A DNA stretch of 64,000 nucleotides from assembly GCA_964187785.1 (NCBI GenBank), contig OZ076409.1, forward strand, positions 22,756,001-22,820,000, in the 5' to 3' direction. The position numbers were made by a program, and so were the translations under genes. The notes beneath the pieces were generated by a model. It was not told the origin of the DNA. It saw only the letters and a program-made list of their open reading frames with translations, and did not search any database. The stretch is from Amphiscolops sp. MND2022 (taxonomy: Eukaryota). This document shows positions 14,401 to 56,875 of the stretch, in pieces (position 1 is the stretch's first letter; the number at the start of each line of letters is the position of its first letter).

Positions 14401-17400
14401 GCCTTAGATATGACGCCGATTCGGGCCGTTCCCGGCTTGTTAGTATTAGTATTCTACCATTTGAGCTAATTAGCTTTGTTTAAGAATTGGTAATGAAGTA
14501 TGAATAAATATTCGACTTTTGTCTGATTTTCTCATTGGGTTATTGTGATAGAGCGATTGAAATGATGTAACATGTTTGTGAACAAGTACTGGTACCAATT
14601 GGCTAAACTCTGAGATTGCCATGCTTCATTGCGTGAAGCCTTGTTAAAAGAAACAGTTTTACTTATTCTAAATTCATCATCATCAATTTACAATTATTCC
14701 CTCAATTTCCAAATTTGACCTCTTTCAGCTATCGCAGAGCTTATTACTCTGTTAAATTGTGAATGCATCATGAACATCATGGAGTCCATTTCTTGAAAAA
14801 GCCTCCAGTTAATTTCATTTAAAAACGTCTCCATCGCCTCGGGGAACCTTTCCTGTCTAGGAATTGTATTTTCATGTCCAAAATATCTGAATTCAATCTC
14901 TTGAGAAAAACGTCCTGTAAGGTGAGAATAGAACTCAGTGTCATAATGATTTGCTGATCCTATAATTGTATTTGCTAATTCCGTTTCAATAAGGTTGATA
15001 TTTTCACCCGCTATCATTATGTCTAAATTATCCATATCAGACATCACGTCCTTTTTTCGAGACTTCTTTGCTTTTGCTTTCGGTCTCCTTGTTGAAGGCA
15101 TAAGAAATTGTTACAACGGAAGAATTGAAGTGTTTCTGCCTTGGAAATCAAAAGTGGTGTTACAGGTCATTTGTATGATATGATAGAGTTTCAGAATTCA
15201 TCAGCACTCGGGAACTAATTGCCCCGGGTATAAATACCTAAACTCATCATGCGTATAGATAGCTCCGTCTATTTTTAGAAGTAGTGACATCATGTCGCTA
15301 AGAAAAAATTCAAAACAATTGTGTCCCGTAGTTACTACAAAGCGCGGGAAATATATCAGAAAAGTCCTTGAGTGACATATACCTTTACATATAACTCAAC
15401 TAACGAAACATTACATGCAATTTCATACACCATGGCATTAGGCCACAAGGGCAAAAACATACATAACGCATTGAATTGGATTTTGAATTCAGGGTTAGTT
15501 CATCATTTTCGAAGCGCCTGGGGGTTTATTTCCAAAGTGTCCGATCAATTTGAGAGCACATAAGCTACTAATCAACATAATTACAGCACAGTCATTCAAT
15601 CACAAGCAGGACCTGCTCTCCTTTATTTAGCGTCTTTCTAGTATAAATGAAGACCGATAACGGCGCAAAGGCTAATCCGGCCGTGCTAGCGCGTTCAGAA
15701 TAGTACAAGCAATACTAAAATACTACACTGTGATTGGCTGAAAATGAAATTGGACGGCTTGTCCAAGGCGACAGGCAAGAAAACACTTGAACTTATTTCC
15801 TTTGCCTGTACGCTTTGGTGTCCAATTTCTCTAACGTGTCCAATTTCTTTAACGTTATATATACAAACGCAACATTTACTAATAAGAAACTACACGTTTG
15901 ATACTAAAACAAAAACAAATAGTTTTGTTCAGCATAGAAAAGTCTTTTATTTTTAAGGAATGGTATTTGACAGGGCCCGCTGGTAGTTATGACAAATGGA
16001 GTAGATATTCTCATCACAGGCGGCCGCCTGGGTTACTTACCATGATCATGGATAATTGCGCGGAATGGTCAATACATGAATCAAGGATGAACCATGGATG
16101 GAAAGCCATGGCCAATAAGCCAGTGACGTTCGATCGTTCTAAGCATTAGTGAGTAAGCTCGATATAGATCTAGTTTGAATTTTATGAAAAATTCTAAGCA
16201 ACGTGCTTCTAAAATTTTACTAAAACGCATTTGTTTGGAGAGAATTTGCCATTACAGAGATTTATAATTGAAAACTGCCAATGAGTTTTTCTACTTTTAC
16301 GACATTCTCAAGCGTTGCGTTTAAATTGATTAGGCTCAAAAAATGAAGAACCATAAGAGCACTGAGTTGCACGTTTCAAAAACTAAACCAAATGGATATT
16401 CAATTTTGCAATCAACATACTGCAAACAAGCATGTCGGAGCCACGAGAATGCGTTTTTTCGTTGATTCAAAAGCACGCTGAGGAAAGACACATTGGAAAG
16501 GCATAAATTGGGAAGGCTCGAGCGTATCAGAACGTATACCAATAACAACGTTCAAATCTTGCACAAAAGTTTGAAAATCACTTGACCTTTTGCTGATTTC
16601 CCACTTTTTGTTTTGGGCTCTAATAAACATATGCTAAGTAACAATTTGTTTTGTTGCTGAAGTCTGTGGACTATCATGAACATAAACGCATTCCAAAATC
16701 GTTCAAAAACTGCATGAAGTTGAAAAATGTGACATTTTTTGGTTCATTTTATCACCATTTTGGAAAATATAGGGTATTTCATTATAAAAAAGTATGGTAA
16801 GAAGTAATTGTTTTTCGATTCTCTGGATCCCCAAATTAACATTTGGAAATTTTGATTCGAATTTTTCATTCCCAGTAAATGTCAAGAAGACGTACAAAAG
16901 TTGAACAAAATTGACAAAAGTTGAAAACTTTTGCATCTATTTTTCTTGGTCATTTTAGGGCTTTTTTGAGATAATAAAATGTTTCTTTTTTCTGTTAAAA
17001 TGAATGCTACGTAGACAACGGTTTCTTTTACGAACTTTCTGGATGGATATTCACACTCTTATACCCTGGATTCTCAGTTTGAAATAAGAACGAATAGCAA
17101 TAAACAACTGTATTCTAACAAGACCATATGGAGAAAGAGCACCCCGGTAAGCTGAAGCTCGATACGGGCAGCGTACTGGGATAAGTGCTTTGAGCAGCCC
17201 TTAGTTGATTACTCTGTATGAACACTCTGTATAATTTGGCTCACAATAACATTCGAAAAGTTTCCAAAAGCTGCATCAAAATGGTCAAAACTTGGAAACT
17301 CATTACATTTTGAAGCACTTTTTGAAAGCATATTTCCTTGAATGTGTTCTGTGGAGTTGAATTTCTGTGGAACAACCTATATCATTTGGGAACGAAATTG

Positions 17401-21600: not shown

Positions 21601-24600
21601 TTCTCTCTTCATATGCGACTGCAAAGCGAAGGGCATCTTGTGGGTCCTCTTTCGGTTCAGTGCATAATCTTTCCTGCACGGTTTTGTTGTTCATATTCTG
21701 TATGAACGTATTCATTACTACGTTCTACGTCTGTTCGCAAAACTAGCATTTGGAACCAATCCCGTTAAAGTATGCCGAAATTGCCTGTGCGTCTCCTTTT
21801 CTTTTTGTTTTCGTGAAAAGAACTTGAATCTTTCCAGTGCTCTTTTTTCCTCAGTTTGCTGAATGCTTCATCACAACTTGTCCGATGTTCGCGTAATGTC
21901 ACGGCCGCCACTCTCATAAGTGAAAACTTGTTCGTAACACTCTTCGTGAAAGCTGTTCTTAACGATAGAAGAAGGTTTCGAACCACTTTTCTGTCTGCAG
22001 CTTGTTCGTTGAGATTGTTTATTAGGGCCAGATTTCTCGATGCTTGTTCCGTGGCTGTTCTCAACAACTCATTCAGTGATGAGTATTTTGCACTTACTGC
22101 AACTGTGAAGAGGTTCCACCACTTCTGTCAATCTATTTTAGGTGCTGTGTCCGCCGAAACTCTGTATGCTGGCAATCCCGACACCGCTGACGCTCTTCCG
22201 AACTTTGCAACTTCTCCACTGCTTGCTGAATCTCGCAGCGCCATGTTGTAGGTGAAGGCTTCGCGTAACTTTCAATGAAAACAAATTATCGATTGATGCT
22301 ACTGAATTTCAGTGTAAGACCATATGGTAATTGTTTTTTTCTTTTGCTTCCTTTTCTACTGTTGTGTTAGTAACAACCTGCCATTGTGACACAACTTAGT
22401 GAGGTTATTATGTAAGGTGACCGCTTGCGCTGTCACAATATATCTAGTTTTGTTTGCATGAATCAAAATTATGTCGAAAGCGGAGCAAAAGCAATTTCAA
22501 GAGAAATCAAGAATATTTTACTTAGAAGCAAACCAGATCTTTGAATGCCATTGTCGTAAGCACGAGAGTTTGTGGATGTAGTTGGACCGTCTTTCTGACA
22601 GTCCATAAATGGCTTACTTCTCGAGTTATCTCTGGAATCTGAGTTTCGCAGAACTTCGGAATATCCTTCCGGTCTCTCGGCCGGAACGTTCCATCTTTCT
22701 CTGGTCAAATGTCCCGATCCGGCCACAATGGCATTTTGAATCTGGGGTAAAACTTGATTGCTAATTGCATCATTTATGGCTCTCTGTATCTGAACACTGA
22801 CACTATTCATCATCTCGTCCATCTCTCTAGATATTCGGGAATTCAATTCACTCGACAGTCTATTTATCTCAGCACTAGAATTACCTCCAGCAGAGTTTTG
22901 GCCGTAATCGGCATTTGGACTAAGTCCGTCATTTCTTGAATTTAAGTACCTGTTTTCATCATTATTTTCAAATTGATCACCAAAAGTACTTTCAGGTCTT
23001 CTGGTTTGATTACTACTAAGGCTTTCATCTCTCTCATTTCTACTGAAATGGTTTTCTCCGAGCATCATATCTACATTTTCAATGTCCGAAATTATCTCAA
23101 CTCCTCTAGATTTTCTGGTTTTCTTCTGCTTTCTTGTAGGCATTAGAAAGAAAGTCCGAGGTAAAACAGTGAATTAGGTTTTATTCGGAAAATAGGATTT
23201 TGTACGTTGTATCGTAAACAGGTATATCAAACTAAACTTGGAGAAGCAAAATACAATTGTGTCCCTCTCGGAAAAATACCAATATATATACCCCTGAGAG
23301 GGTGACACTCACATTCCTTGCATGACAATCTATTTACAAATTCCATAAAGGGCACATGACCATGGCGGGTGACCACTAACATTCATTCATTTTTAGCGGC
23401 GTCAACTGCATCAAAGCACTTAGGAATTTGTCCCGTTAGGGCCAAAGGGAATTCATACCTAATTCATTCGCAGCAAAATCATTTAAAGTTTACATAAAAT
23501 ATGGAATGCACTCAAATGCATTTTCTAACTGCAAATACTATCATCAAAGGGGAGCGGAGGAATTTAGCCTTATTATATTAGGCAAACAACACTTTGACCA
23601 AACATCAAAACTAATACTTTCAAATTGTTTACAGTGAGAGGAATGTAAACTATTTAGCGGCACGTGCCTACACACGTGCGTAGAATCAACAAAACAAAGA
23701 CACAGTTTCATGCAATAGAAATGAACATAATATAGCAATATGGCCTAATACGGCCATTGGACTTGGGAGCTGGCCAATAGTGAAGGCCGGAATAGGACAG
23801 GTGACGGGTATTCGGATTGCTACTACTGGTCGTTATTATTGCACTAATTGGATTTAAAAAGCTCATTAACATCTTCAAGTATATAAATATAATCTTACAT
23901 GACTGTAAAACAAACTCATTCATGCTTAAAAGCATCTCTAATAATAATAAGCAAAATGGCCTAAACCGGCCATTTGCCTTTTGTCCTGCATTACCAATCT
24001 AATATAACGTCAAGTGGCCATATACGGCCAATCAATTAAAAATGTGTACAGCGCTTTACACAATCTGGCCTGAATAGGCTAATTGCCTCGTATTAAGTAA
24101 ACATTATTAAAATACTGGTCAAACGGCCTTAACCGTCTGAAAGAGCTAAGTCTGTGGTGTAGTTAGTTAATACTGCACTAGAGGGGTTATTCAGCCTAAG
24201 AGTACAAGCACATGAATCCTGGTTAATAATTAGCATCACAATTGCGCTTTTTGTGAAATGGCCGGAACCGGCCGTCTGACTGGATATTTATTAAAAGTAG
24301 CGAAGCTATGTCCACAGGCCTTATTCGGCCATTAATGAATGGAAGTATTAACTGCGTAGCAAATGGAGTAATTTGATTGGACAAGGCCGCGTGCTCAAGT
24401 GACGTATCTGGTACGGGATTTTATCAATAGCAACTATAATTAAAACAATTACCAACACTTCTTCTAACACTTTTAATCATGGCATCTGACGTATTAAGAC
24501 AACTTCAAGTACTTTCCAAGAAAATACACAGCACTACTGATTAAATAGCACAGATTACTTGATAAAAGCTAAATAGGCCGGAACCGGCCATTGGACCAGC

Positions 24601-27600
24601 GTTCACGAGCATAGTAGTTAGATTAAGGCAAGCGGCCATAACCGGCCAAATAATGTATTGCTGAGAGATAATGCTAATACTAGCTATACTGCACTGTGAT
24701 TGGTTAATTTGCAGGAGGCAGCCTGCGACACTGCGGGTGGAATAAATAAAAACGACCCTGCATTCAGTCTTTTCAAATAAGCTTCCTTCATCATTGCTGT
24801 GACCTAGGCCGGCTCACCTCTTGGAGTGACCGGGCACGAAACTGTCTTTGATTTCGTTCAAGTATTGTACACCCTTGGTACCATCGATTAGGAAGTTGGG
24901 TCCGGATGTGTCAGGTCCAAAGGCCCAGATCTTTCGCAGGTCATCGGGTCCCCATTGTGCTTCTACCAATTCAGCTTCATTATCGTCTCCTTTCACGAAA
25001 GTCTCGTATATAAATCGAGTTCTGGCCTTGGCTTCGTCACTGGCCTTAACGTCACCAAGGTCAATCTTTTCAGCGAGTCCTTCCAGGAAAGGATCTGCGG
25101 TAACGAATAATCGGTTGTGCTTGTTGGGAGACTTGCTGAGAGCAGGCTCTTTTCCCGATGAGATGACAGTTTCTCTGAAGGACACGACGGGGTCTTTCTT
25201 GATGATGGGAATACAAGCGTGGTCCTCCTCCAAATCTTTCAAACAGATCTCCAAGTGCAATTCTCCGGCACCTGCCACCTAATTTGCCAGAACGCGAAGT
25301 TGCTTCCACCTCTGGAGCCAGCTGACATGCCCTCTTTTCCCAAGTCGGCCTTGATGAGTTTGCCATCGTATGTATAGACAGCCCACTTATTGGATACCTT
25401 CAGAGTTGGCGAGTGAGTTCCCAGAAGAAGTCTCTCGCCACAAGGAGACCATTCGAAGCATGTGATATCTTGGAAATCGACGATCTTCGCAATCAAACTG
25501 AACGTGGGTCGATACCAGATTTCTACGTTACTTCTCACTCCTCCGTGGCCGTAGAGCGCCAGCAAGTGGCCCTGAGGCGAAAAGCTACACGCGGTTCGCA
25601 GCCCAGTCCCGAAGTCATACACAGAAGAACATTTCGAGTTGAACAAGGACGCTTTTGAAGGCATGTGTCCATAAGTAACACAGAATTCGCTGACGTTTGG
25701 ATCCCAGCAAATATTGTAGATTGGACCCTTCTTGTTGAGTTCCACAATACTCGAGGAGCCCTCTGTCGAAATGTAAAAGAGCATGGTCTCTCCATAGTAG
25801 GCCTGTCCCGATTGATCCACCTCAGTCATGGACTTGATTATCAACCCATTTCCTGGATTGTTCCAATGCAGGGTCGCTTTATCAGCTTTGAAGAAGCTCT
25901 TCGAAGAAAGTGCCGAGTACTGGTCCAGGTCGGGAAATCTCAGAATCTTCACAACTGAAGGCGTTCCCTTTTTAGATCCGGCCACGTAAATGGCAACATG
26001 ATAGGGCTCTTTAGGTAACATTTCAACAACAGTCAGCCCTGGGATATTCAACTTGTACTTCGGGGTGCTGAAGTCACCATCGACATAGAAAACAGCTGTT
26101 TCCTTCAGAAGTTTGCAACAAACTTTCTCATCGTCAGAAAACTGAGGTCGCCAGTTCTCGAAAGATCCTTGTGTGAAGGTTGCAACAACATCTTGTCCCA
26201 AGAAGGAGAAAATGCAAATATTGTTCTGACTTTTATTGGCATTGCTAAAAGGTTCGAATGTGGAGATGTATGTATTTTTCGGAGAAAATTCAATACTGAT
26301 CACTCGAGACTTTGGATGCTTGAAGACAACTTGCAAGTTTGATGCATTAAAAACCATGAGGTTTTCAGCATCGCACCATGCGAAAAAATTACCACAACTG
26401 CTCCAACTGAATACCTGGTTGACTGAACGCTGAGTGGCTTTCGCATCAATTTGACGAGGCGAATAAGCTGTAGGCCCACTGGTTGGATAGAGGAGAAAGC
26501 CTTCGTTGCCTCCGACACAGAGATGAGGCAACGATGCACCTTCACTATCACCACCTTGCTGGCTGGTCATTTTATTTCTTTGCTAACCTTCGACTAAATG
26601 ATTGCTCTCAGAGTTGCGTGCTCAGAATTTACCTCAGAAATATCAAAATTTGATTGAAAATCTGAAAATCGAGTACGTCAGAGCTGGGTTTCTTTAAAAT
26701 CAAGTATCAAATCAAAACAGCGAACACTAAAGTAAGTGGGAAGCACTATCAATGACAGTAGAAGCAAATTTTTGATTGACAAAGGTTTCATCACAGGCGA
26801 ACACAATTCTGTTTTCTGAATCCATTGACGTAGGGTACACGGACTTTTTCCACATGTTGCAATCTATTTAATAAGTTTATCACAACAATTACAATTAGGC
26901 TTTCGATAAAAGGGAAATTGGAAAGTAAAATGGCGAAAATAATAACTAAAATAATCCAGAATGCGGAAATTCTAACTAAATGGTAATAAGGGCAACGGAA
27001 CAAAACGGCAAAACGGAACAAGGTAAATGGCCATAATCGGCTTCTAACTAACTGATTTGTAAATAATGAGCAATCTTCTGTACATTTCGCTGGCAGACTC
27101 CATGCACAGTTTTAAATTCGTAAATAGCCATAAAATATTAACCCGGTAATCTCTTCAGCCACGAACTCCAACTTTTCAATTTTGATTATCATTATTCTAA
27201 TTCCTTTTTTATTTGGATTTTTGTTCATTTGAATTCATCTTTACGACGTCCATCTCTCTCCGACTTCAACTTTGTTGCTGACTACATTTTCCTCGGAGTA
27301 TTCCGGAGCATCTTCCTCTTTTCAGCCGAGCTCGGCCACTTTCCCCAACTTCACCAGCCGAATGAGGACGGTTACCCAGAAGGAGTTTCCATCACTGCAG
27401 GATGTCTTCAAACACAAGTTGATCTGGATTTTTATTTTGAACTAATTTAACTTGATCAGGGTTAAAATTTGTTCACAAAATGCTTCCTGCTTCCATCACT
27501 AAACACGTGATAACACGTTTCATTCAAATTTTTAGAACACTTTCGAAAGGTTTCTGACGCGGCAAAATGGATTTCTTTCAAGGAAGCTAACCGCCAAATT

Positions 27601-30600
27601 TCATCTCTTTCTGTTTATAGAATCAGAACAAAGAGACTACTCGAACACCAGATCCCAATTCACCCGTGGGTACAGGTTATGCTGTTGTGTTTTCACCGCC
27701 CCTGTTTCCTCCTCTTAGAGTAGAGAGGTCCCCAAGTAGTACTGACAGTGTTGATGTTACAGCTTACGCTGACGAAAAGGTCAGACTCCATGCAGAGGCT
27801 CAATTGCTAGAAGGGTCACAGGTCGCTGAATCATTCATGGCGACCAAGAGACAAAGGACGAAGAAGGAAGAAGGGTAGATGCAGTAGGAGGAGAAGTAGA
27901 AGGAGAGGTAGAAGCAGAGGGAGGAAGGACTTTAAAAATGAAAAGGAAAAGAAGAAAAGAGAGCAGTGTTCCTTCTTGGACGCCTATTAATCTTTTCCTA
28001 GTATCTGAAGTCTTCTGAGTAGTTTGAATTAGGATTAGGTCTCAAACTATATCTTCCACCTCTAGGACTCAGATTTTCATTCCCTTCATCATTTTGCGAT
28101 ATTTCGGGCACGATAATATCATCCCCCCTTTTTGGAGATTTTTGTGCATCGCTTTCATTAGCAGAATTTCGTTCTGAAACATTTGCATTGTTTTCTTGTC
28201 TTTCGGACAGATCCGGCAAAGATTTTTCTGGATTTTTGTGGTAAACGGCCGAATCCGGCCAATCAGAGTTTTCATTTCTAGTAGCTTCACTATCTTCATT
28301 TGCATTGCTGACGTCACTTTTCAGTCGTTTATCTCGACTGTGCTCTGTATCGTTGACGTCATTCGGACAATCAGTCGTGATTATGTAATCCGCTTCATTC
28401 TCGCTTGCGTTATCTGCGTTCGCTTTTGCCGTACTCGGTCTTTCTTCATTCGGCAAGCTAGCCGGAATAGGCTCGTTGCCTCGTGTAGCTAGCTGTTCAC
28501 CAAAGTTTGTTTCCCACGTAACTGTGTACAAATCGTCCTGCGGAATGACAATTCCTTCGTCCGGCAGTAATCGCTCTTCTCGGAAAATGTCCTCAAGCGG
28601 TTGATTGGGGACAAACTTTTTGAGGCGAACTCGATGCAAGATCTGAGTTTTAAGGTTACTGTTGGTTGACAGGGGTATACAGTCTGGTTCACCATTTTTG
28701 GTAATGAGTACATTCTGGAACTGTCTCTCGTCTAGTAGCGATTGTGGAATTGATTCTGCACAGTTTTCGATATTCTCGGTTCCCAAGGGGTTTGGAAACA
28801 CCGGATGGTTTAGCGCTCTGGTTTTCTTGTTATGGGTAATTGGAGGGTTCTCGTGGACTGTCTTGTTGCAATGTTCAATATCGTCTAGAACATATTGAAA
28901 TTGCAATAGATCCTGGTTGCAGATCTCAGTGTCCCAGTAGTGATCTCTTCCATAATCTGGGTCGATGTATGTAGGGTTGTAGTCGACTACTAAGGGAATG
29001 GGCCTGAATCGGGTAGTAAAGGTAGTTGTGTAATCAGGATCCCAAACAGGAATTGATTTCTGGAACAAATGGGTATTATTATAGGTAATAATGATAGCTT
29101 TTTCAATTTGCTGCTGCCAGACAACAGAAGGATAGCCCATCAATTGTTGTTGGTAATTATGAAAGTTTTTGGTTTGAGGGTCCGATTTGATGTATTGACG
29201 GACAGAGACTAGTTGGTTGTATTGGAGTGGTGGCGAAGCTAGTTTTTTGACTCATCTTTGCTTGATGAGGATTGGGAATTGGATGATGTTGGCTTGTGAT
29301 GGGGTTTTGAGGATTTAGGGTCAGGATCGCTGTCCGACGAGTCCTCTGGCCTGGTGCGTTTGGGCTTGAGATGCGCACCAGCACCTTGCCAGCATCTCTC
29401 CTCAGGGTGGTTTGTCTTGCCACATGTCCCACATTTAGGATAAACCTTTTTCTGTGTGGGCTTGCCTTGTTGGGCATCTTTCTCCTTCTTCTTTTTGCGC
29501 TTTTCACAGTCTTTGACGATGTGGCCCTTTTCTTTGCAATAGTTGCAGGTAATGTCACTCATTTGGACGTTTGATGGAAAAGTTTTTGTTTTTGTGGCTG
29601 AAGACGTCATTGATGCCATTGGTAGGTCATCAGATTCTTCAAGCGCGTTTAGCTCCAATTCTCTCTCAAGATGAGCGACAATTTCGTCATAGGAGCCGTT
29701 CTCTAATCTGGCCATATTTACTGATCTTTTTTGCTTGGGCGGCAGTTTCGCGTATAGGAGACTGTCAATAATCTTTTGGGCATGGTCTCCGAATGCTTTT
29801 TCTGCGCCTTGATTCAGCTCTTCAAAAAAATGTGGTAGTTTTGTCGTATTTGGATCAAATACCAGACGGTGCCATTTATGTTTGGCAGTTGCTTGAGATT
29901 CGGGTTTGACGTATTTCCGTCTGAAGATGACTAATACGTCCTCGAGAGTTTGTCTGTTAGCTGTGCTAATGTTTCGGAATGTTTGCAGAGCGTTTTTTCT
30001 CAAAAGCGAATGAAAACGATTAATTTTCATCTGCTCGGACATCAACTTGATCATCGTGTGGAATAGATATACGAACAGCCCGAACTTCTTGCTTTTGCCG
30101 TCAAAAGTCATAGTGTTTGAGTTGACTGGCCGGATAGTGGGTTGTTGGGCTGTTGGACGGTTCTGCATACTGGTCGAGACATCAGCTAGCCTGTTGATAG
30201 GGTCTTGTTCCGGGGCCGGAACGGTCCTTTCTTGTGCTGGGATCGTCGTGTCGAGCAGGGGATTGAGGTCATCATGAGATCGGTTGAGATGACTTCTTGA
30301 TGGCGTTCGTCCCGTGAGAAACTCAGGAATATCAGTTGGAGATTCGTTTTCTCCTGTCACCATGTCGTAAGCACGAGAGTTTGTGGATGTAGTTGGACCG
30401 TCTTTCTGACAGTCCATAAATGGCTTACTTCTCGAGTTATCTCTGGAATCTGAGTTTCGCAGAACTTCGGAATATCCTTCCGGTCTCTCGGCCGGAACGT
30501 TCCATCTTTCTCTGGTCAAATGTCCCGATCCGGCCACAATGGCATTTTGAATCTGGGGTAAAACTTGATTGCTAATTGCATCATTTATGGCTCTCTGTAT

Positions 30601-33600
30601 CTGAACACTGACACTATTCATCATCTCGTCCATCTCTCTAGATATTCGGGAATTCAATTCACTCGACAGTCTATTTATCTCAGCACTAGAATTACCTCCA
30701 GCAGAGTTTTGGCCGTAATCGGCATTTGGACTAAGTCCGTCATTTCTTGAATTTAAGTACCTGTTTTCATCATTATTTTCAAATTGATCACCAAAAGTAC
30801 TTTCAGGTCTTCTGGTTTGATTACTACTAAGGCTTTCATCTCTCTCATTTCTACTGAAATGGTTTTCTCCGAGCATCATATCTACATTTTCAATGTCCGA
30901 AATTATCTCAACTCCTCTAGATTTTCTGGTTTTCTTCTGCTTTCTTGTAGGCATTAGAAAGAAAGTCCGAGGTAAAACAGTGAATTAGGTTTTATTCGGA
31001 AAATAGGATTTTGTACGTTGTATCGTAAACAGGTATATCAAACTAAACTTGGAGAAGCAAAATACAATTGTGTCCCTCTCGGAAAAATACCAATATATAT
31101 ACCCCTGAGAGGGTGACACTCACATTCCTTGCATGACAATCTATTTACAAATTCCATAAAGGGCACATGACCATGGCGGGTGACCACTAACATTCATTCA
31201 TTTTTAGCGGCGTCAACTGCATCAAAGCACTTAGGAATTTGTCCCGTTAGGGCCAAAGGGAATTCATACCTAATTCATTCGCAGCAAAATCATTTAAAGT
31301 TTACATAAAATATGGAATGCACTCAAATGCATTTTCTAACTGCAAATACTATCATCAAAGGGGAGCGGAGGAATTTAGCCTTATTATATTAGGCAAACAA
31401 CACTTTGACCAAACATCAAAACTAATACTTTCAAATTGTTTACAGTGAGAGGAATGTAAACTATTTAGCGGCACGTGCCTACACACGTGCGTAGAATCAA
31501 CAAAACAAAGACACAGTTTCATGCAATAGAAATGAACATAATATAGCAATATGGCCTAATACGGCCATTGGACTTGGGAGCTGGCCAATAGTGAAGGCCG
31601 GAATAGGACAGGTGACGGGTATTCGGATTGCTACTACTGGTCGTTATTATTGCACTAATTGGATTTAAAAAGCTCATTAACATCTTCAAGTATATAAATA
31701 TAATCTTACATGACTGTAAAACAAACTCATTCATGCTTAAAAGCATCTCTAATAATAATAAGCAAAATGGCCTAAACCGGCCATTTGCCTTTTGTCCTGC
31801 ATTACCAATCTAATATAACGTCAAGTGGCCATATACGGCCAATCAATTAAAAATGTGTACAGCGCTTTACACAATCTGGCCTGAATAGGCTAATTGCCTC
31901 GTATTAAGTAAACATTATTAAAATACTGGTCAAACGGCCTTAACCGTCTGAAAGAGCTAAGTCTGTGGTGTAGTTAGTTAATACTGCACTAGAGGGGTTA
32001 TTCAGCCTAAGAGTACAAGCACATGAATCCTGGTTAATAATTAGCATCACAATTGCGCTTTTTGTGAAATGGCCGGAACCGGCCGTCTGACTGGATATTT
32101 ATTAAAAGTAGCGAAGCTATGTCCACAGGCCTTATTCGGCCATTAATGAATGGAAGTATTAACTGCGTAGCAAATGGAGTAATTTGATTGGACAAGGCCG
32201 CGTGCTCAAGTGACGTATCTGGTACGGGATTTTATCAATAGCAACTATAATTAAAACAATTACCAATACTTCTTCTAACACTTTTAATCATGGCATCTGA
32301 CGTATTAAGACAACTTCAAGTACTTTCCAAGAAAATACACAGCACTACTGATTAAATAGCACAGATTACTTGATAAAAGCTAAATAGGCCGGAACCGGCC
32401 ATTGGACCAGCGTTCACGAGCATAGTAGTTAGATTAAGGCAAGCGGCCATAACCGGCCAAATAATGTATTGCTGAGAGATAATGCTAATACTAGCTATAC
32501 TGCACTGTGATTGGTTAATTTGCAGGAGGCAGCCTGCGACAGCCATTATTATGTTGTAAGCCATTTCAGTGGACTACATTTAACCATGCAAATTAACCAT
32601 TTAACCATTCGGGAACTCATACCCCAAAAAGTCTCCGAAACCAGACCTAAAAGCCTTTTCTGCAATAAATTTATCATTCAAGTCACAATTGCAGCTCGAA
32701 GGTGCTAGAAATACTTTTTACGAATACTACATCAAAATTTGAAAACTGTATCGAGTACTTAAACTAGCTAAAACAAGCGTAATGTTTCTGTACACGTGTC
32801 AACGTGTTTACATTTGCGTGGGGTGTTTACGATACATTCTCGACACAAAACCTTGCATGAGATCCCACAAAATCATAACTCTACTCTGCAAAGCAAAAAA
32901 TTCAGGTTCTCAGCTAGCTTAAACATAAATTTAAACTCTCTTGACGTTAGTGTCGGAGGAATACTTAACAGCAAGCTGTCAAATGAAAATGGTCCATTTG
33001 TGTCAATCATAACTCAGTGATAAAGAAAACACAGACTGATACGCGCTTCTGTTACCTTATCTGACATGAGAATCGGCAACTGTCTATTCTGCATGTGAAG
33101 CATCTACTTAATTGCCATCCTTATTTGGATAAGTTGCACGGTTTCCGTGCGAAAAGAATTTAATTGCAACATTAACTTCTCCCCAAGAAGTGTAAATAGT
33201 GGAACATTTTCCTTTTGCCCACAGGCAAAAAATTATGAGCAGAAATGGCAAATATTGCATAAATCAGTAATTGATTATATGAATATATGTGTAGTCATCA
33301 AAAAGGAGTAAAATAGAATGTTTTGGGTAAAGAATCAATTTCATTATACACACCAAAAGTGGATAAACTTTAGGATAGTACCTATGAATCCACAATGGAG
33401 GTAGCAGAAGCAAACAATTACCCCAAATCCACGGGTGGACGCCGACTAAGCAGTTCTACTATTCTACACGGCGCCCTTTTCGGATACTATCTCTCCATAG
33501 CAAGCTATGTTACCATGTTTGGAGCAATTGGTCAAACAATGGCCGGCTTGAAGATGTGGTTTCAATGTGACTTGCACAAGGTCACAGAGGTCTGACTGCT

Positions 33601-36600: not shown

Positions 36601-39600
36601 GGAGTTGTGGTGATTAATCCCGAATCTTGACCCATAGCTTCGGTTCCTTCATCCCTTGTAGCGAATAAACGCTCAGCGCTTTTCATTACAGTCGCTTCAG
36701 AAAAAATGTTTCGAAAACTTTATTTAATGGAATAAGTAAGTTGATCAGGGTAAAGTAACATGCAAGTAACATGTAAGTAGCAGTCGGAAATATTTCTGTC
36801 TTCATAAACGTTTGAACACGTTTGCCATTTTTTTGCAATCACTGGGGAAGAACAAGATAGCATTTCGTTTAAGACTCTATCAAAGCAACTTCTTTTTTTG
36901 ATTTTCAATCAACGTAGTTCTGAAAATCTTCCTTTTCATTTCTTGGTTGTCGTACGTTTGACAATATCAGTCTTCATTATTTGCATATGGTAGCGAACTT
37001 TTGATTTTGCTAGCGATAAATGTATTTCAGCTGTCACTTCAATACGATCATTCATGGTTGTTCGCAAAGTTTCAGTTGTTTTTGTTCGTTCTAGGTGAAA
37101 ATGTATGATCAATACACGTTTTGGATGTTGGCGTTCTTATGGTTGGTAACAAGCTTTGTAAATGGTTCTTCAAATAGTAGTTTGATTTCGTTTCCGTCGG
37201 AATGGTCTGAGAAAGTTGGGCCCTCTAGGAATATTTGAATGTCAATTGAGCAGTACTTTAAGGCTGCCCTAAATATGCAGCATCACTAAACTTCGGTTTA
37301 AAACGATTTCGTAGTTTTGAATTTTGCTTGTAATTGTTTTCAGTTATCCATGTTGCACTTGGTAACATGGCTTCAGGTTTGTTTAGGAACGTTTGAAGTA
37401 GCCATATTATGCCTGGCTGATGAAATCCTGATTAGACTTCATCTCTAGCCCGCTATTCCAGATATTTTCAAAAACAATTCTTATAAGGTGATTTCGAGGA
37501 GTGAATATAAAAGTTTTTTTTTATTTCAGTGCATTTAGCCACATCATTAAAGCAGGCATTTTCCCTGTAGGAGTTCATTGTTGTAATCTCGGTCTATCAC
37601 GATAAAAAGGTTCTTTATCTAAGACGATAAATTCGTATCTTCTTTAGCAACTAATCTATAGTATCAATCTCATGTTCAATGGTCAATACTCTATTGTACA
37701 ACACTAAATGTAGTAAACTCAAATTGACAGTAATTAGAGTTTTATGTTTGACAACAATAATATGCTCTCTGTCTAGGTTCATAGTTTTGAAGGTCATGAT
37801 ATCCACATGATATCACATTCCCCCCTCTTCGGGGTTGTCCGATGGGGATTTGTTGTAGTGGCCGTATGGTACGGATTTCTTCATTGTTTTGCCGCATTGG
37901 ACGGTCGTTCTTCGTCTCATTTCTCTCCGCTGTTTCCGCTGTTGTTTCCTGTAATAAATTACCGTGGTTAGTTAATTTTTTCTTATTGTTACTAATGTGG
38001 TACGGTATCCCGCCTAATTTTTCGGTTTGTTTTGCAAAAGGTAGTCTATTGGATCTTCTGACCGGTTCTATCGGTTTTTCTGTTCTATTTTTTCTTTTAT
38101 AGCTACCTTGTTCCGGTGTCAGGTTAGTTTCCTTCGGGTGGAGCTGAAGTTCATCTTCGATGTTGACTTGTATCGGTTTTCCTTCCGCTTTATTGTAACA
38201 TTCGAAGTCGTCATCGTCAGATATGATGCTCAGGTTTAGGTTTTCTGTGTTTTTGTTTGGTGAAGTAAATTGTCCCTTGTTGTTCCTGGGTATTTCCTTT
38301 CTTTTCGACCAGTCCTCGCTTCTTTCGTAGTTTGCGGTGTTCTTCGGTGTTTCTTTCCTGCTGTAGATGCAGGGTGCTCCGCTGGTGGTTGTATTGTCCA
38401 GTGTTTTGGAGCAGGTGGGTTGGTCTGCGGTGTTTTGGCGGGTGTTGATCTTCTTTGCCGGTGTTGTTGTTTGCTGAAATGGTAGCGGGTTGGATATTAA
38501 TTTCCTGTGGATAACTTTATTTTTATCCGTTGTTACGGTGTGTCTTGTTCCAGATACAGCGGTTTGTACTTTATTTTTGAATTTACTTTCCATGGATCCT
38601 TTTTTGTAGTTTTTTTCGTAAAATTTGAAAGGATATTCAAATTTACTTACCGCACTGGTCGGTTTTTTTGTTTGGGAGAATGTCATCCCTCGCTTGTATC
38701 TTGGTTCGGCTATCTTTTTCTTTGACATTACCAGGTGATCCGTGATTTGTCCGGTTGAATTTCTGGTGATATACACCGAGAGATCTTTGGAATCCACTGA
38801 AATAGAATTTTTTAGGTTAGACAGTTTGGTTCTTGGTGTCCGTCCGAAATGTAATTCAAACGGAGTTTTCTTTATTTCTGAATGTATTGTAAATCTTAGG
38901 ACGTATAGTGCTCTATTTACGCTTTCACGAAGGTTTTGGTTGTCTTCTAGATTTGCCAGAGTTAGGTTCTTCAGCGATTGGATTGTACGCTCGACCAATC
39001 CGGTGCCAGTATGTAGGTTTGCCGTACCGTATATGCGGTTGATATTATGCGTCTTGCAATATTCTATGTATTCTTTGGAGATAAAGGCGCCGCCTTTGTC
39101 CGACTTTATTTGTTTCGGTACTCCGTATACATTTATGTATTCATTCAGAAATGAAATGACGGTTTCATGGTTCGTATTTTTGCATATTTTTGCTACGGGC
39201 CATCGGCTATTTTTATCCACCGCAATTAGTATAAACGGATTGCTTTGCAGTTTTTTATTGTTGAGATTTCCCGTAAAATCAATTTGTATTTCTTCACCAG
39301 GTGTTTTTGTCGGTTCGATTTTTGATTTTTCGGTTTGGGGTATTTGGAATTTTAGATTCTTACCAGCGTTGAGGCAGGCTGAGCAGGTTTTTGATTTCTT
39401 TTCAATATCTTCCCGCATGTTCGGCCACCAGAATATTGCTGCGTCGCTGTACATTTTGTTTATCCCGGGATGTCCAAAATGTAGTGCATTGAGTGCTGCG
39501 TAGCGTAGTGATTTTGGAATTACGATGCGGTCGTCGACCAATATAATGCCCCAACGGTATGTCAGTTTCTTGGCTACGGTTTTGTAGTTCTGCGGAATTT

Positions 39601-42600
39601 GATCCAATTTGTTGTCCTCGATGCAGCAGTTTAGTTCGATGAGATCAGGGTCAGCGGCCGTCTCCTTGATTATCGTTTCCAAGTCTAGCATGAAATCTAG
39701 TTCTGCCGATCTGACGTTATCTTCTTGTTGTCTGTTACGCTTCGGTTTTTCTTCAACTACGCGGTTGATTCTCACGTAGTGTACGGCAATTTCTTCGATT
39801 GGCCCGTCTCTGTATTCTTGGACTGGTATTGCTGGGTAAGTTCCGGGTTCGTGGGTGGCTACTGCTTCCTCCGAGTTATTTGAGACGGTGGATTCTGTGT
39901 CTCGGTTGGTTTCATTTCTCTCGGTTTGTTGTTGTTCGGTGTTTTGGGTCTGGGGAATGTCGTCCCCAAAGTTTTGAAAATATCCTCCGCCGATATGTTG
40001 TTCTCTGATCTTTTGTCTCAGTTGAATGTCAATTCGCTTTATTTCTCTTCTTTCATCTTCTTCCGGTCTTCTCGGTATGTAAATTTCTCGGCCCAAATTC
40101 TTGTTGAAATGTGGTCTCATTACACCCGGTCTCGCCAATTGTACTCTTCTTCTCACGAGTTCCGAAGTTTCGGGTGATTTATCTCTTGCATTGATAATGG
40201 CCATGATATCGTCATCTGCACCCCAATGGTGTCGTAATTGTCCGTCTGTGCGGAAGAAGCGTGTATTGTTTTCATTGTTATTCATTTTTATACAGTCAGT
40301 ATTGGATGAATGCTGTTGTATGCGGTAATTAGAATCAATATGGCTTTTGTTTGTTTGGTAGCGTCGCGTGTCAATTAGCGAGCGCGTATCACGCATGTTT
40401 GCTTTGGCTGCCGTGGTCGCGTCTTCTGATTGGTCGAAAATCCGTCCTATTCGGGCGTTTACCGTTGCTAGTTGCGCGATGGCGTTAATAACAAATTCTT
40501 CTTCGTAATTTTCTTCCGGTTCTGGATTTTCGGTGGGATTTCGGCTGATGAAATCCGTGAATTTGATTTCTTTGCCGGCAGTGTGTTTTAAGCAGATGTC
40601 GAAGTGGTTCAATCTGTCTAGCCATCGTGTTAGTCGCGCACTATATTGTTTATTTGTCTTGTTTCTCTTCAGGAGGGGTTCTAGTGCTTGATGGTCCGAG
40701 AATAATTGGACTTGTTTGCCATATAAATGGAATCTAAATCTTTCCAAGCCCCATACGACGGCTAATAGTTCTAATTCTCCGATAGAATATTTTTTTTCGG
40801 CGTCGTTTAGGTATCGGCTGGCAAATGCTATCGGTTTTAGTTCTCCGTTGCCTTGTTTTTGCCAGAGTGCTATTCCCAAACCAGTTTTGCATGCGTCGGT
40901 TGTGACGATGTTTTCTTTGTTGCCGTTGTAGTGTGCCAAACAGGGTAATGATGTTAGTTCTTGTTTTATTTTGTTGAAGTCCGAATTTCGATCGGTTGTC
41001 CATTCCCATTTCGTCCCTTTTTTGAGTAGTTGTCTCATGTTGTCTGTTTTCTCGGATAAATTCGGTATGAATTTCGCAAAGTACTGTATAGCTCCGAGGA
41101 AAGATTTTAGTGCTTTGGCGTTTGTTGGTGGTTCTAGTTTATTTATCGCATCTGTCTTTTCTTTGTTTGGCCTGATTCCGTCTTGTGATATCGTATGTCC
41201 GAGCCATATTGTTTCTTTTTGATAGAATTTTGACTTCTTTTTGCTTGCTTTGTAGCCTTCATTTTCCAGTTTTGTCAGTACCGAATATAGTTTTCGGGTA
41301 TGTTCTTCTTTGGTTCCACGTGTGACAATTATAATGTCATCTAGCCAAACTGGTGTTTGGTGACCCAGGGTTCTGTCTATTTTTTCTTGGAAAATCGTTG
41401 GTATGTCGGCGGGGCCGTAGAATCCTTTTAAGAATCGGTAATATCCATTTATTTTCTCTCCTGTCATTGCAAAGTTGCAGTGTTTGCTTGTTTCGGGGGC
41501 CAGTTTCATTTGTCCGTATGCGTAGTCGAGGTCTACTACGGATATCCAAATTGGGTCGCGGTCGTTTTTGGATAATTCGGCTGATATTTGATTTAATAGT
41601 TCTTCCATATTTGGCATGTGTGGCCTTTTCTTTACGCAGCTGTCATTGAGTTTTCGGGCGTCTAGCGCGATTTTTACCGTCTTGTCTTTCTTCACCGTAA
41701 TTACAACGGGTGATACAAAACAATCTTCTTCGATTGTTTCTAATCGTTCGAGATGTCCGGATTTTATTAATCGGTCCAGTTCGTTTTTTACGTCTTTTTG
41801 TAAATGGTACGGTATTGGTCTGGCTTTCTGCTGGATGGGGTAGCATCCTGGCTTTATTTGAATTTTCACTTCTATATTTTTAATTGTATGGTTTGTTTCG
41901 AATAGTTTGTTGAATTTCGCGTAGATGGTTTCTGATTGGTTGGTTGGTTCGTCCAATTGAATTTTGTTGATGGTGATTGGTAATTGTTTCAACCAGTTCA
42001 CGCCTAATAATGGAGTGATATCGTTTCTTTTTGTAATTAGGATTGGTAATTTTGTTGTCTTTCCGTTGTGTTCGATATCGGCCCATATTTTCCCGAGGAA
42101 TTGGATTTCGTTTTTGTTTACGTCTTGATATCTTTCTTTCAGGGGTTTTATATCTCTTTGGTTGTAGAGTTCTGGGTTGTTTGGCATTATTGTAACTGGA
42201 GAGCCGGTGTCAATTGTGAAATTTTGGTATTTGCCGTTAATTTTTAGTTTGATCCCGTAGTTATCGTTTTCATCCGGTAGTACTCTATTGATTTGCGTGA
42301 TTTGTTGTATTTCTTCTGGTTCACTTTCTTCTTCTTCGGTGTATGTTTCTTCCAGGTAGTTGATTTTTTGCTTTCTCGTGTTCTTATTGGTTTTGCTGCG
42401 GCAAACTCTTGCGAAGTGTCCCATTTTGTGGCAATTATTACATTCTGCCGTTTTTGCCGGGCATTTGTGTGATGGTGACCAGTTTTGCTGTCCGCAGAAA
42501 CCGCAGTTGTTGTTTTTTGCGGTTGTTTCGGTATTTTTCCGGTAGTTTCGTGGTTGTATCTTCTGTATGGGTTCTTCTTTAATTTCTTTTTCTTTCGCCA

Positions 42601-45600
42601 GTGCTGGTGGTATTGTTGATTGCTTATGTCTCTTTTCATAACTATCTTGGGTTACCAGATCCATGGTAGTTTTCAGATTCAGTGTTTTTTCGCGGATGAG
42701 TTTTTCCCGTAGTTTTTTATCGGTAATACTAGTGATAAATTTTGATATTAGTAGGTCTTCTTGTTTGATATCTTTGAATTCGCAGTTCTTTTCGAGGGAT
42801 ACTAATTTTCGCCAGTGTTCTTCCGGGGTTTCGTTGTCTTCTTGTTTCGCCCAGAAGAAATCTCCTCGGCTGTGGTAGGTGTTTCGTTTTGGCATGTAAT
42901 AGTCTTTGAATAGTTGGATGAGTCTTTCTGTATTGATGGTATCGGGATCTGTGTTGAATTCTCCTTTGGTGATCGTCTCTATTGCCGATGGTCCTGCTCC
43001 CCAGATGAAATCTTGTCTTATTTCCGGTTCTTTTGTTGTCCATTCGTTACTTGTTGGCATTGTTTCCCCGGATAAAGCCGGTTTTATATCGATATCATGG
43101 ATTCGTTTTATGTAATGCCGTAATCGTTCGGTCCATTCTTTGGGGGTGTATAATTTTTTCCCATCAAGTCCGGTGTCTTCAAGGTATGGTAGCAATATAT
43201 TACTCTTGGTTGTCGTCATTGGTATTTGGTCGGTTAAAATTGGATTTACGGATAAAAGTAAATCTTGCTACTGCGCCATGTTGTAATCTCGGTCTATCAC
43301 GATAAAAAGGTTCTTTATCTAAGACGATAAATTCGTATCTTCTTTAGCAACTAATCTATAGTATCAATCTCATGTTCAATGGTCAATACTCTATTGTACA
43401 ACACTAAATGTAGTAAACTCAAATTGACAGTAATTAGAGTTTTATGTTTGACAACAATAATATGCTCTCTGTCTAGGTTCATAGTTTTGAAGGTCATGAT
43501 ATCCACATGATATCACAGGTAACAAGCTTTGTAAATGGTTCTTCAAATAGTAGTTTGATTTCGTTTCCGTCGGAATGGTCTGAGAAAGTTGGGCCCTCTA
43601 GGAATATTTGAATGTCAATTGAGCAGTACTTTAAGGCTGCCCTAAATATGCAGCATCACTAAACTTCGGTTTAAAACGATTTCGTAGTTTTGAATTTTGC
43701 TTGTAATTGTTTTCAGTTATCCATGTTGCACTTGGTAACATGGCTTCAGGTTTGTTTAGGAACGTTTGAAGTAGCCATATTATGCCTGGCTGATGAAATC
43801 CTGATTAGACTTCATCTCTAGCCCGCTATTCCAGATATTTTCAAAAACAATTCTTATAAGGTGATTTCGAGGAGTGAATATAAAAGTTTTTTTTATTTCA
43901 GTGCATTTAGCCACATCATTAAAGCAGGCATTTTCCCTGTAGGAGTTCATTTGATTTGATCATAAGTTAGTGATGGCACAGGGTATGAGGTCAAACGTTT
44001 TCAATCATTTGTAACAAACACTGATAGCATTTTCAACTGATTTCTTTTTTATTACAGCTCTACAGTATACTAGCTTGTGTGAGAATATTAAGCGGAAAGT
44101 TCCCTCTTCCTAAGCTGCAAAAAGATTTCACGAATCAATTCAGAGATATATAAAGTTCAGATGCTGCGAAAACTTTGTACTAGTACAAAGTTCTCGCAGC
44201 ATCTGAACTTTATACAGCTGTCAGAACAAAAAATATCCTTTCAGTAGATTTTCTGAAAATTAGTTTTTTTCTTATTTTTAGTTAATTTGTGTGGCGTATC
44301 TATAGCTCATTCATTGGTGTAGCATGCCAAGAAACTGTTGTTGGCAATGGAATCAACAGGTACCCGAGAATCGCCCTGTAACCATATTTTGTCGCTTTCC
44401 GTCTTTTTCATACGTATTTGAGTTTTGAGAGTGGCTGTTAAAAAGTTCTTTCCTACAATGGTTGTTAATATTCCGATCGGTTCTGTGGTTGATATGAATT
44501 TTTCCCTTGTTTGAGGATCAATCAAATATTTAATTTTATTCTTGCTAGATAGTATCCAGTTGATAGTTGTAAAAATTTCACGATAATTTACTAGTTCCAA
44601 TTCTGGCTGGTAGATGCATCCATGCAACCATGGTGACAATGCCAAGTGGATTTTATAATATGCGAAATAGATTTTGTAAACAATACAAAGTAAGTTTTTC
44701 AAACGCCTTCCATAATTTCGAACAAAATTCAATCGATTTCTGGCGTGCCGGCGTCTTGACAACAAAGATTAATTTCCAACCGTCACTAAAATACTTTTGA
44801 AGAGAAAGTGAAAAACTCCAAGAAAGTGGTATCATTACCACTATCATGAGCTAATGATTACAAAGTCAAAACAAGCATAACCAGAATGTTCATAATGCAA
44901 TAATCCTAATTGGTTTTCGATTTTTATGTGATCCATATAATTATAGTCTTACTTAAGTCACTTAAAATGAAAACATCACTGGAAAGAAGAATCTCTGAAA
45001 ATGCCCAGCTCAATTTTGCCAATTATGTAAGCGTTTCTTTTTGAATCTGTTAAATTTACCATCTCAACGCTTCCATTTTTAGAAAAAAGTCAGCAGAATC
45101 AACTCTGTTATATTACAGCTTCTCTGTTTCCTACATGGAGTTGACGAGATACCACAGAAGATAAGTCCCCTCAAAGCTTAGAAAATATATGATTTCATTT
45201 ACCTGTTTGCTGACGTCATGGCCATTATCTGCATGGAAACGAGAGTGAAGAAAGATTGAAGGAAACTGTCCACCACGCAAAGGGGAAAGGGCAGAACGTG
45301 GTCATAGAAAACTTTGATGCCATTGGCTGCAGCCCAGTAGAAGCAACACAGCACATCAATGCATCCTTAAACATGCAAGAATAGGAGGAAAGAAGGAACA
45401 GTTTGAAGAAGAATCAAGATTTCATGAGTTGGAGAAAAAAACTAGACAGTGTGAAAACTTAGGATTTCTTGACACAAACTTCCCCAAGGCTGTTAAGGAC
45501 TGGTCCAGGATTTGTAAGTCCAAAAAGTCAATCCTTGACAGTCCTTGAGGTTAGATTTCTGTCATTACTGATGTGTGATGAAGTTAAAATCTCTTAAACA

Positions 45601-56104: not shown

Positions 56105-56875
56105 GCCGTGTTGAGATCCCATGGGTTCCCATGCATGGCCATCGATTGCCCTTGGTCCGTCCCTGGGGTTAATTCGGAGGCACAGACCGCTCCCCATCGA
56201 CGTCCCATTGACGGCCCAGCAATGGTCCATCAATGGCAAAAAAGTGTCCGAAAACCTCGAATTCGGCAAAATTTCAGTTATGAGTTTTGAGTGCTGTCAT
56301 GCAATATCATTCCGGTTTGGGTTTTTGGTTTCAAGGGTTTCCCTAACGACCCGTGTAGCATTAAGGACGCTTTTCGGATTTTCTAGAGCCGCTAGATAGG
56401 TAAAAGTTTTTGTATTTTTGGAGCAATTTTATCGATTTAGGAGCAATCAAAAAATTGGCATTTTCATATTTTAGGTGTATTTTCTTGGAGGAGTATTTAA
56501 AGATTAAGATCTAGAGGAATAAGATCGATCGTTTAGATCAAAAACTTTGACATGAACAACTTCGTAAAGGAGAATAAGATCTAAAAGTGAGAGGAATAAG
56601 ATCTAAATTTAGATATTATTCCCTTTTCCGATCAAAGTATTCAGATCTTATGCCCTCCTCTAGAGAAATTAGTTTTTTTGACTGTTCATGGTTCAGAGTG
56701 AGAATTCTCAAAATCTATAGTGAATTCCAGATCAGGGTTATTTTGGCTCTTCGAAGGTAAAATTTTTTTACTTCGATGGTAAAAAGGTCGGCGGCCATGT
56801 CAATGGGCTATCGATGGGGATGCGATGGCCCATCGATGCCCCATGGATGGGCTATCCTGGGAACCCAACCCGGGG
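56105..56875. mobile_element. Probable non-autonomous TIR element with catcgat/cccatg subterminal repeats
   Basis: ccgtgttgagatccc vs reverse-complemented end ccgggttgggttccc; GC-rich repeated motifs at both ends. Confidence 0.45.

Follow-up and report, generated by a model that had tools for sequence, protein, structure and literature searches.

A long terminal repeat (LTR) retrotransposon of Amphiscolops sp. MND2022 carries a copy of the host spliced leader (SL), and directly behind this SL its sister copies hold different captured host mRNAs. The element lies in a 64,000-nt stretch of contig OZ076409.1 (the window, whose first letter is position 1), within a 1.07-Gb assembly. Positions 22552-32541 of the window are a very young, non-autonomous Ty3/gypsy-type LTR retrotransposon of an abundant family; here the SL is followed by a processed copy of the eIF2A mRNA and by a fragment of eEF2. 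At least 10 copies with the identical element-SL junction carry 7 different cargoes. We consider it probable that the cargoes were acquired by LTR-mediated retroposition in which reverse transcriptase (RT) lands by homology on the embedded SL, with serial replacement of one cargo by the next. The SL at the head of the cargo, which an earlier note on this DNA did not mention, is the unusual trait of this lineage.

A host spliced leader precedes the captured mRNA

At the end of a spacer common to the family, canonical copies of the element continue with TCAATTTTGATTGG (ten copies lined up). At the same point the window copy and nine others have the same 30 nt, CCTAATTGTTGTGATAAACTTATTAAATAG, followed by copy-specific sequence. 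This 30-mer is identical to the trans-spliced leader printed for the acoel Symsagittifera roscoffensis; according to the same paper, LTR retrotransposons make up half of the 1.1-Gb assembly of that species and 30.2% of its genes are trans-spliced (PMC9911081). Followed by GT, the 30-mer occurs 2027 times in the genome at ≤2 mismatches (reversed control, 0); exact occurrences number 1709, with GTAAGT next in 1190. Most occurrences fall in a large tandem array on one chromosome (G000:C1:16.23-16.43 Mb, L035-L046), made up of ~904-bp units, in each of which a single SL RNA gene and a single 5S rRNA gene (117.5 bits) share a strand. The unit spacing was read from match coordinates, Tandem Repeats Finder (maximum period 500) having given nothing at the SL locus. 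The SL RNA gene consists of the SL, the GTAAGT donor, two stem-loops and an Sm-like site, AAUUUUUGA, and its fold is better than that of all 200 shuffles (z -4.09). On these sequence grounds, the 30-mer before the cargo is the host spliced leader.

The stretch of ~1.4 kb that had been described as non-coding is composite: it resolves into the family spacer of ~1.1 kb (27997->26900), a 36-nt SL (26899->26864) and the 293-nt eIF2A 5' untranslated region (UTR). Likewise, the label of an env-position gene does not hold for a region made up of non-coding family spacer plus cargo. The SL of the window copy is longer than 30 nt because of an internal 6-nt tandem duplication, TAATTG TAATTG, found in none of the nine other cargo copies; two copies with a TRPM cargo have a T>A change within the SL. 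We tried to read the duplication as the footprint of a misaligned template switch and rejected this, as no register accounts for it.

Used as a query, the 2034-nt cargo gave 13 candidates in this assembly, all of which were scored, and the whole eIF2A/eEF2 cargo is present only in the window as a single-copy chimera. The intron-containing eIF2A parent that the earlier note had proposed to look for lies on another chromosome (G000:C4:69258819-69270251). The first ~1590 nt of the cargo match it as 10 pieces at 97.7-100%, each bordered in the parent by ...ag and gt..., with an overall identity of about 99.5%. By this comparison the cargo is a processed eIF2A mRNA copy, with ten exons joined precisely and the introns removed. 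In the parent, the sequence up to the base preceding the cargo start ends ...ttctgtgtttcag, a splice acceptor, and a ...ttcag acceptor stands at the cargo start in all three parents examined (eIF2A, XRN and CSE1L). An SL in the element and an acceptor at the parental cargo start together indicate that the cargoes are copies of mature SL-trans-spliced mRNAs. The CSE1L parent (G000:C8:61691616-61693205) is collinear with its 1590-nt cargo, the first 472 nt and the last 251 nt matching at the expected spacing, so that a trans-splice acceptor seems to be followed there by one uninterrupted exon that makes up the 5' 1.6 kb.

The joint between eIF2A and eEF2 falls inside an eIF2A exon, at an 8-nt overlap (GGTGGCAG) present in both parents. 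The precise exon joins and this microhomology support the earlier suggestion that a cellular mRNA was transduced by RT template switching. The eIF2A open reading frame (ORF; 26570->25239, 443 aa, Pfam eIF2A E 4.7e-54) is intact, intronless and equipped with its own ATG, as had been stated; its composition is 433 eIF2A codons plus 10 foreign ones. Because the reading frames of eIF2A and the eEF2 piece do not match, the 443-codon ORF ends after these 10 codons; a 154-aa frame with EFG_IV comes after it. Cargo and parental eIF2A differ by 5 coding substitutions (3 synonymous, 2 non-synonymous), too few to judge selection, so the dN/dS comparison that had been proposed is uninformative and gives no sign of selection.

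The eEF2 piece is 97% identical (438/450) to the closest of three genomic eEF2 loci, and its 3' part is common to 5 other copies of the element. It is the remnant of an earlier cargo, and its lower identity compared with the ~99.5% of eIF2A fits eEF2 as the older of the two.

The SL is also found in other settings in this genome. About 519 exact 30-mers (1709 minus 1190) have no SL intron after them. In twelve that we sampled, all upstream contexts are different, 11 of them ending in AG, and the downstream sequences are varied and mRNA-like. SL-tagged retrocopies thus seem common here, and the preceding AG suggests that the SL may begin two bases upstream of the 30-mer. In addition, the copies of a dispersed repeat family start exactly at the first base of the SL (e.g., G000:C1:10390140-10390286, L083; C1:3726231-3726377, L078; and at least 34 others). 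Of the 42 matches reported from 158 candidates, 36 span the SL plus 117 nt at 92-100%; a single locus was checked for its upstream DNA, which is unique there, and a few copies have the SL joined instead to an internal ...ttttcag acceptor. This repeat looks like a retroposed, trans-spliced transcript family.

One junction with seven cargoes

To find relatives of the window copy, we searched with a 65-nt query across the spacer-SL junction. This gave 367 candidates, and among the best 40, which were scored, 10 match over the full length and 30 match the SL part only. In all 10 copies the cargo is the 5' part of an mRNA that runs in the sense direction of the element, and its open frame is 372-599 codons long. 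The cargoes are eIF2A (1 copy, the window), the XRN 5'-3' exonuclease (1 copy), CSE1L / exportin-2 (2 copies), an acyl-CoA synthetase-like AMP-binding enzyme (ACSL, 1 copy), a TRPM-type SLOG domain protein (3 copies), WDR36 / Utp21 (1 copy) and a concentrative nucleoside transporter (CNT, 1 copy). A separate 5-bp target-site duplication (TSD; in 1 of the 8 cases read by eye) and unrelated flanks distinguish eight of the nine sister copies, among them the two with CSE1L and the three with TRPM. Cargo-bearing copies were therefore re-mobilized after capture, CSE1L twice (2 loci) and TRPM three times (3 loci); no second eIF2A copy is present in this assembly. Cargo-bearing copies with distinct TSDs, which the earlier note had proposed to count, are thus several for the SL junction and one for the eIF2A/eEF2 junction, and by the earlier note's own reasoning the eIF2A copy alone is a one-off retrocopy.

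The same recurrence bears on the possibility that the LTR element was joined chimerically during assembly to eIF2A/eEF2 cDNA-like reads. The single-copy status of the chimera would be consistent with such an artefact. Its joints, however, are biological (the SL, the acceptor-exact start and the 8-nt microhomology), its TSDs match, and 9 further loci show this architecture around different cargoes; we give an artefact almost no credence.

The earlier note had further suggested that the truncated eIF2A and the eEF2 sequence may be a selected cargo that modulates translation of the element RNA. The intact 443-codon ORF with its own ATG, and the long open frames of all 7 cargoes, are features that a functional cargo would have, but open frames are expected in any case in copies this young (1 LTR difference, 3 synonymous to 2 non-synonymous changes). 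Moreover, the eEF2 piece is out of frame, the chimera is present once, and a long part of the element transcript precedes its ORF. Between the two CSE1L copies, 2 synonymous changes stand against 11 non-synonymous ones, and these copies look unconstrained. The functions of the sister cargoes (XRN, CSE1L, ACSL, TRPM, WDR36/Utp21 and a nucleoside transporter) are unrelated, which speaks against two cargoes chosen for ribosome function. The apparent theme of ribosome factors looks coincidental, as eEF2 is an older remnant shared with 5 other copies. Judged from these sequences, selection for a role in translation is very improbable, and the cargoes are presumably neutral.

Nested remnants at the 3' joints

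We measured the 3' joints as the extent of sequence, counted from the 3' LTR, that each sister has in common with the window copy. For CSE1L, this extent is 450 nt in one copy and 445 nt in the other, with the same joint in both; it is 195 nt in two TRPM copies, 194 nt in the XRN copy, ~100 nt in the ACSL copy and the third TRPM copy, 77 nt in the CNT copy and 44 nt in the WDR36 copy. The 3' joints are thus nested within the eEF2 remnant or the conserved tail of the element. Sequence derived from eEF2, or its terminal AGAGGTGAG signature, is found in 8 of the 10 copies and is absent from canonical copies; the 2 remaining joints lie downstream of the AGAGGTGAG position. This distribution indicates that new cargo entered elements that already held cargo. 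One copy, TRPM_C3a, combines a TRPM cargo with an ACSL-type 3' end and is therefore a recombinant. The XRN copy (G000:C7:10868393-10870360) and two TRPM copies (C6:33290826-, C3:52129024-) nearly share their joint in eEF2.

Microhomology is present at all three 3' joints that were compared with their parents: the eIF2A/eEF2 joint described above, the CSE1L/eEF2 joint, with a 10-nt overlap (13 nt with one mismatch), and the CNT/tail joint, with 9 nt including one mismatch. At the 5' joint, the element and the SL share only 'AG'.

An alternative is the standard model of LTR-mediated retroposition: every capture would be an independent event that started from an element without cargo and took two illegitimate switches guided by microhomology only, the SL being a passive tag. 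Double switches of this kind are the mechanism documented in PMC5131818, and the shared 'AG' at the 5' joint is in line with them. Against this, the element-SL joint is identical in 10 of 10 copies, though a 2-nt homology is available anywhere in the element, 8 of 10 copies bear the AGAGGTGAG signature or longer eEF2 remnants that mark already loaded elements, and none of the 30 canonical copies scored has a cargo. Independent capture is therefore an unlikely source of the series.

It is also conceivable that the 5' joint was formed in RNA, the SL of the element acting as trans-splice donor onto host pre-mRNAs, so that RT made the 3' joint only. The same joint between SL and acceptor exon would be expected, and there is a parallel in the chimeric-RNA model for oncogene transduction. 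The elements, however, contain only the SL exon: in none of the 10 copies is the SL followed by the GTAAGT donor, the stem-loops or the Sm-like site, which makes an RNA-level joint highly improbable.

Architecture of the element and its family

The coordinates of the element are given in Table 1. Self-BLAST of the window returned a direct repeat, 22548-24730 / 30360-32541, at 99.9% identity, and exact comparison set the LTR bounds. The two LTRs have a single mismatch (24456 C vs 32267 T), begin with TGTCG and end with CGACA (TG..CA), and GCCAT abuts both outer ends of the element as a 5-bp TSD. The earlier description of a complete LTR unit with near-identical LTRs is thus accurate, as is the statement that the interior reads on one strand: every reading frame of the element is on its sense strand, the minus strand of the window.

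Table 1. Features of the cargo-bearing element in window coordinates
Feature	Position	Strand	Basis
TSD GCCAT, 3' side of element	22547..22551	.	
3' LTR, 2179 bp, TGTCG...CGACA; contains first 197 codons of gag-frame ORF	22552..24730	-	
3' internal tail conserved in family, 97 nt	24731..24827	-	
eEF2 fragment, ~451 nt, remnant of earlier cargo	24829..25279	-	
8-nt microhomology GGTGGCAG at eIF2A/eEF2 joint	25272..25279	-	
Processed eIF2A mRNA copy: 293-nt 5' UTR + 433 codons	25272..26863	-	
Chimeric 443-codon ORF: truncated eIF2A beta-propeller + 10 out-of-frame codons	25239..26570	-	
Embedded spliced leader, 30-nt SL + internal 6-nt duplication TAATTG	26864..26899	-	
Family spacer, found in cargo-free canonical copies, without long ORF	26900..27997	-	
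Internally deleted pol, 417-aa frame	27998..29251	-	
gag frame with two CCHC knuckles	29239..30954	-	
PBS-like sequence directly after 5' LTR	30338..30362	-	by eye
5' LTR, 2179 bp	30363..32541	-	
TSD GCCAT, 5' side of element	32542..32546	.	

The sequence directly after the 5' LTR, TGGTGACAGGAGAAAACGAATCTCC, starts with TGG, and its complement, read by eye, resembles the T-arm and acceptor end of a tRNA; we take it as a site like a primer-binding site (PBS). The gag region is a 581-codon stop-to-stop frame (30984->29239) in which two CX2CX4HX4C motifs can be read in translation; the corresponding Pfam zf-CCHC match is weak (E 0.0036) and under the family cut-off. The frame is open from an ATG at 30954, within the 5' LTR, and a second ATG (30363-30361) straddles the LTR end. 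The 197 codons inside the LTR (30363-30954, 22552-23143) continue in frame into gag, across the PBS-like site. At 14694-15110 (-) of the window, a diverged relative of the N-terminal part of this frame is recognizable at the protein level (29% identity, pairwise E 1e-6), so that the LTR-encoded stretch is probably real coding sequence, unusually long for an LTR.

The 417-aa frame that follows (29251->27998) gave no Pfam match and matches 67 longer proteins in a large protein collection. The best match among them is 1690 aa long; its residues 1-165 align with residues 49-203 of the frame (72% identity), and its residues 1474-1690 with residues 201-417 (68% identity). The 1690-aa protein is a pol with RVT_1, RT_RNaseH, Integrase_H2C2 and rve in Ty3/gypsy order. 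The frame, on this alignment, is a pol of which both ends are kept (165 N-terminal and 217 C-terminal residues) and from which protease, RT, RNase H and integrase (IN) are deleted, and homology of the retained ends places the element in the Ty3/gypsy superfamily. With the pol interior gone, the element would have to rely on RT and IN supplied in trans by a helper. The earlier note was right about the pol deletion, and its view of a helper-dependent element is in line with it.

The deletion is a trait of the whole family and not of this copy alone. A search with the LTR gave 3994 first-look candidates, and all of the best 40, which were scored, match at 97-100% over the full 2179 bp; a search with the gag-to-pol region gave 5397 candidates, and of the 42 matches reported, 38 cover the whole query at 95-100%. 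By these matches, the LTR family is abundant and young. Canonical members have an LTR start-to-start spacing of ~5.9 kb; between their two LTRs stand, in this order, gag with the deleted pol (2365 bp), the spacer (1112 bp), ~150 bp and a conserved tail (roughly 85-97 nt). Since canonical copies share this layout, the missing pol and most of the stretch of '1.4 kb non-coding' are family traits. In the window copy, ~164 nt of the canonical 3' interior are replaced by ~2.07 kb. All mobilized sister copies retain at least the last 44 nt of the 97-nt tail, and the lineage series thus maps the minimal 3' cis region to at most 44 nt before the LTR.

Two other repeats were observed in the window. A second LTR element at 37145-43951 (-) appears full-length: its repeats, 37145-37817 and 43279-43951, are 99.8-100% identical and enclose one gag-pol-like open frame of 1841 codons (37742-43267). 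At 56711-59029, a 1.13-kb unit is present in two tandem copies of 99.6% identity.

A proposed route for serial cargo exchange

We propose the following route for the exchange of cargoes. In a founding step, the element would have acquired an SL-bearing mRNA once, probably that of eEF2, which is the most diverged piece and the common remnant. In later cycles, a host mRNA would be packaged together with the element RNA. During minus-strand synthesis in the particle, RT would copy inward through the 3' LTR and the tail into the resident cargo, jump at a short microhomology into the co-packaged host mRNA, and proceed to its 5' end, through the SL. The SL-complementary end of the cDNA could then re-anneal to the SL within the element RNA, much as a strong-stop product is transferred, onto an internal 'R', and synthesis would continue through the spacer, the deleted pol and gag. 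Because the SL is already in the element RNA, one illegitimate switch per capture suffices. In each cycle the new mRNA would replace the 5' part of the old cargo and leave a nested 3' remnant, and the expected product is a constant 5' joint with a truncated remnant of the former cargo on its 3' side. The embedded SL would on this scheme be an internal 'R-like' repeat to which any trans-spliced host mRNA in the particle can return its cDNA, a generalization toward which we lean only slightly.

Several observations weigh against this account of SL-guided exchange or limit it. The SL-eEF2 progenitor that it implies was not found among the 10 copies, a number that is a lower bound because it comes from the best 40 of 367 candidates. 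The model does not predict that the XRN and TRPM 3' joints lie ≤1-3 nt apart in eEF2, just before CCTTTGGACC; their shared position may be a template-switch hotspot. The ACSL copy (C9) is without a TSD call, the stretches examined having missed its LTR ends. As to the reverse transcription of the element itself, no tRNA was matched to the PBS-like site, which was read by eye, and no purine-rich tract adjoins the 3' LTR: the final 15 nt, TTATTCCACCCGCAG, are not purine-rich, and the closest short purine runs lie ~35-75 nt upstream. The nearest full-length pol found is only 68-72% identical over the retained ends, a divergence that does not point to it as the actual helper.

If SL-guided exchange is correct, this lineage transduces the 5' halves of mRNAs serially, guided by homology, and steadily supplies truncated and chimeric retrogenes, and other animals with SL trans-splicing could show the same process. 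With 7 cargoes in 10 copies and their nested remnants, the succession of template switches is directly readable, and the series suggests that trans-splicing can shape the origin of retrogenes and exon-shuffled chimeras.

Relation to known systems

Captures by LTR-mediated retroposition are normally rare, isolated events that each require two illegitimate template switches; in this lineage, homology appears to have taken over at one of the switches, through the SL carried in the element. Retroviral reverse transcription itself includes obligatory strand transfers, among them the strong-stop transfer at the R region. The proposed step resembles this transfer as a homology-guided move of a cDNA end, formed at the 5' terminus of a first template, onto a matching repeat of a second, and differs from it in that the repeat is a host SL internal to the element and the donor is a host mRNA.

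Acutely transducing retroviruses are replication-defective, pol-defective and helper-dependent, and carry host coding sequence gained by RT template switching. The present element is similar in being pol-defective and in carrying host coding sequence. Unlike in these viruses, its cargo begins at the SL of a mature mRNA, so that the 5' joint did not arise from read-through into a downstream host gene; in addition, the cargo is exchanged serially and there is no evidence of a selected function.

In a literature search of open-access papers and bioRxiv, no report came up of an LTR element with an internal SL that serves as a recombination site. A DNA-encoded 'relic' DinoSL marks the retrogenes of dinoflagellates (PMC6050394, PMC5585692, PMC12014239), and there, as here, the 5' SL in DNA proves origin from a mature trans-spliced mRNA. 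According to the abstracts of these papers, the DinoSL retrogenes differ in being dispersed and not cargo of an LTR element, and the abstracts assign the SL no role as a recombination site.

For LTR-mediated retroposition, the closest precedent, the description is that of Tan et al. (2016, Genome Res, PMC5131818), who cite maize Bs1, rice retrocopies in LTR elements and yeast Ty chimeras. As in the cases set out in that paper, a retrocopy without introns replaces the element interior between two LTRs, the junctions are microsimilar, the product is a chimera of two parents, and such chimeras act as non-autonomous elements that undergo secondary retroposition. The terms 'spliced leader' and 'trans-splic' do not occur in its main text. 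Unlike in those cases, the 5' joint is fixed here at an embedded SL in 10 copies, 7 cargoes have been exchanged and their remnants are nested. The general process, LTR-mediated retroposition, is known, while the serial, SL-guided form of exchange that we propose appears to be new.

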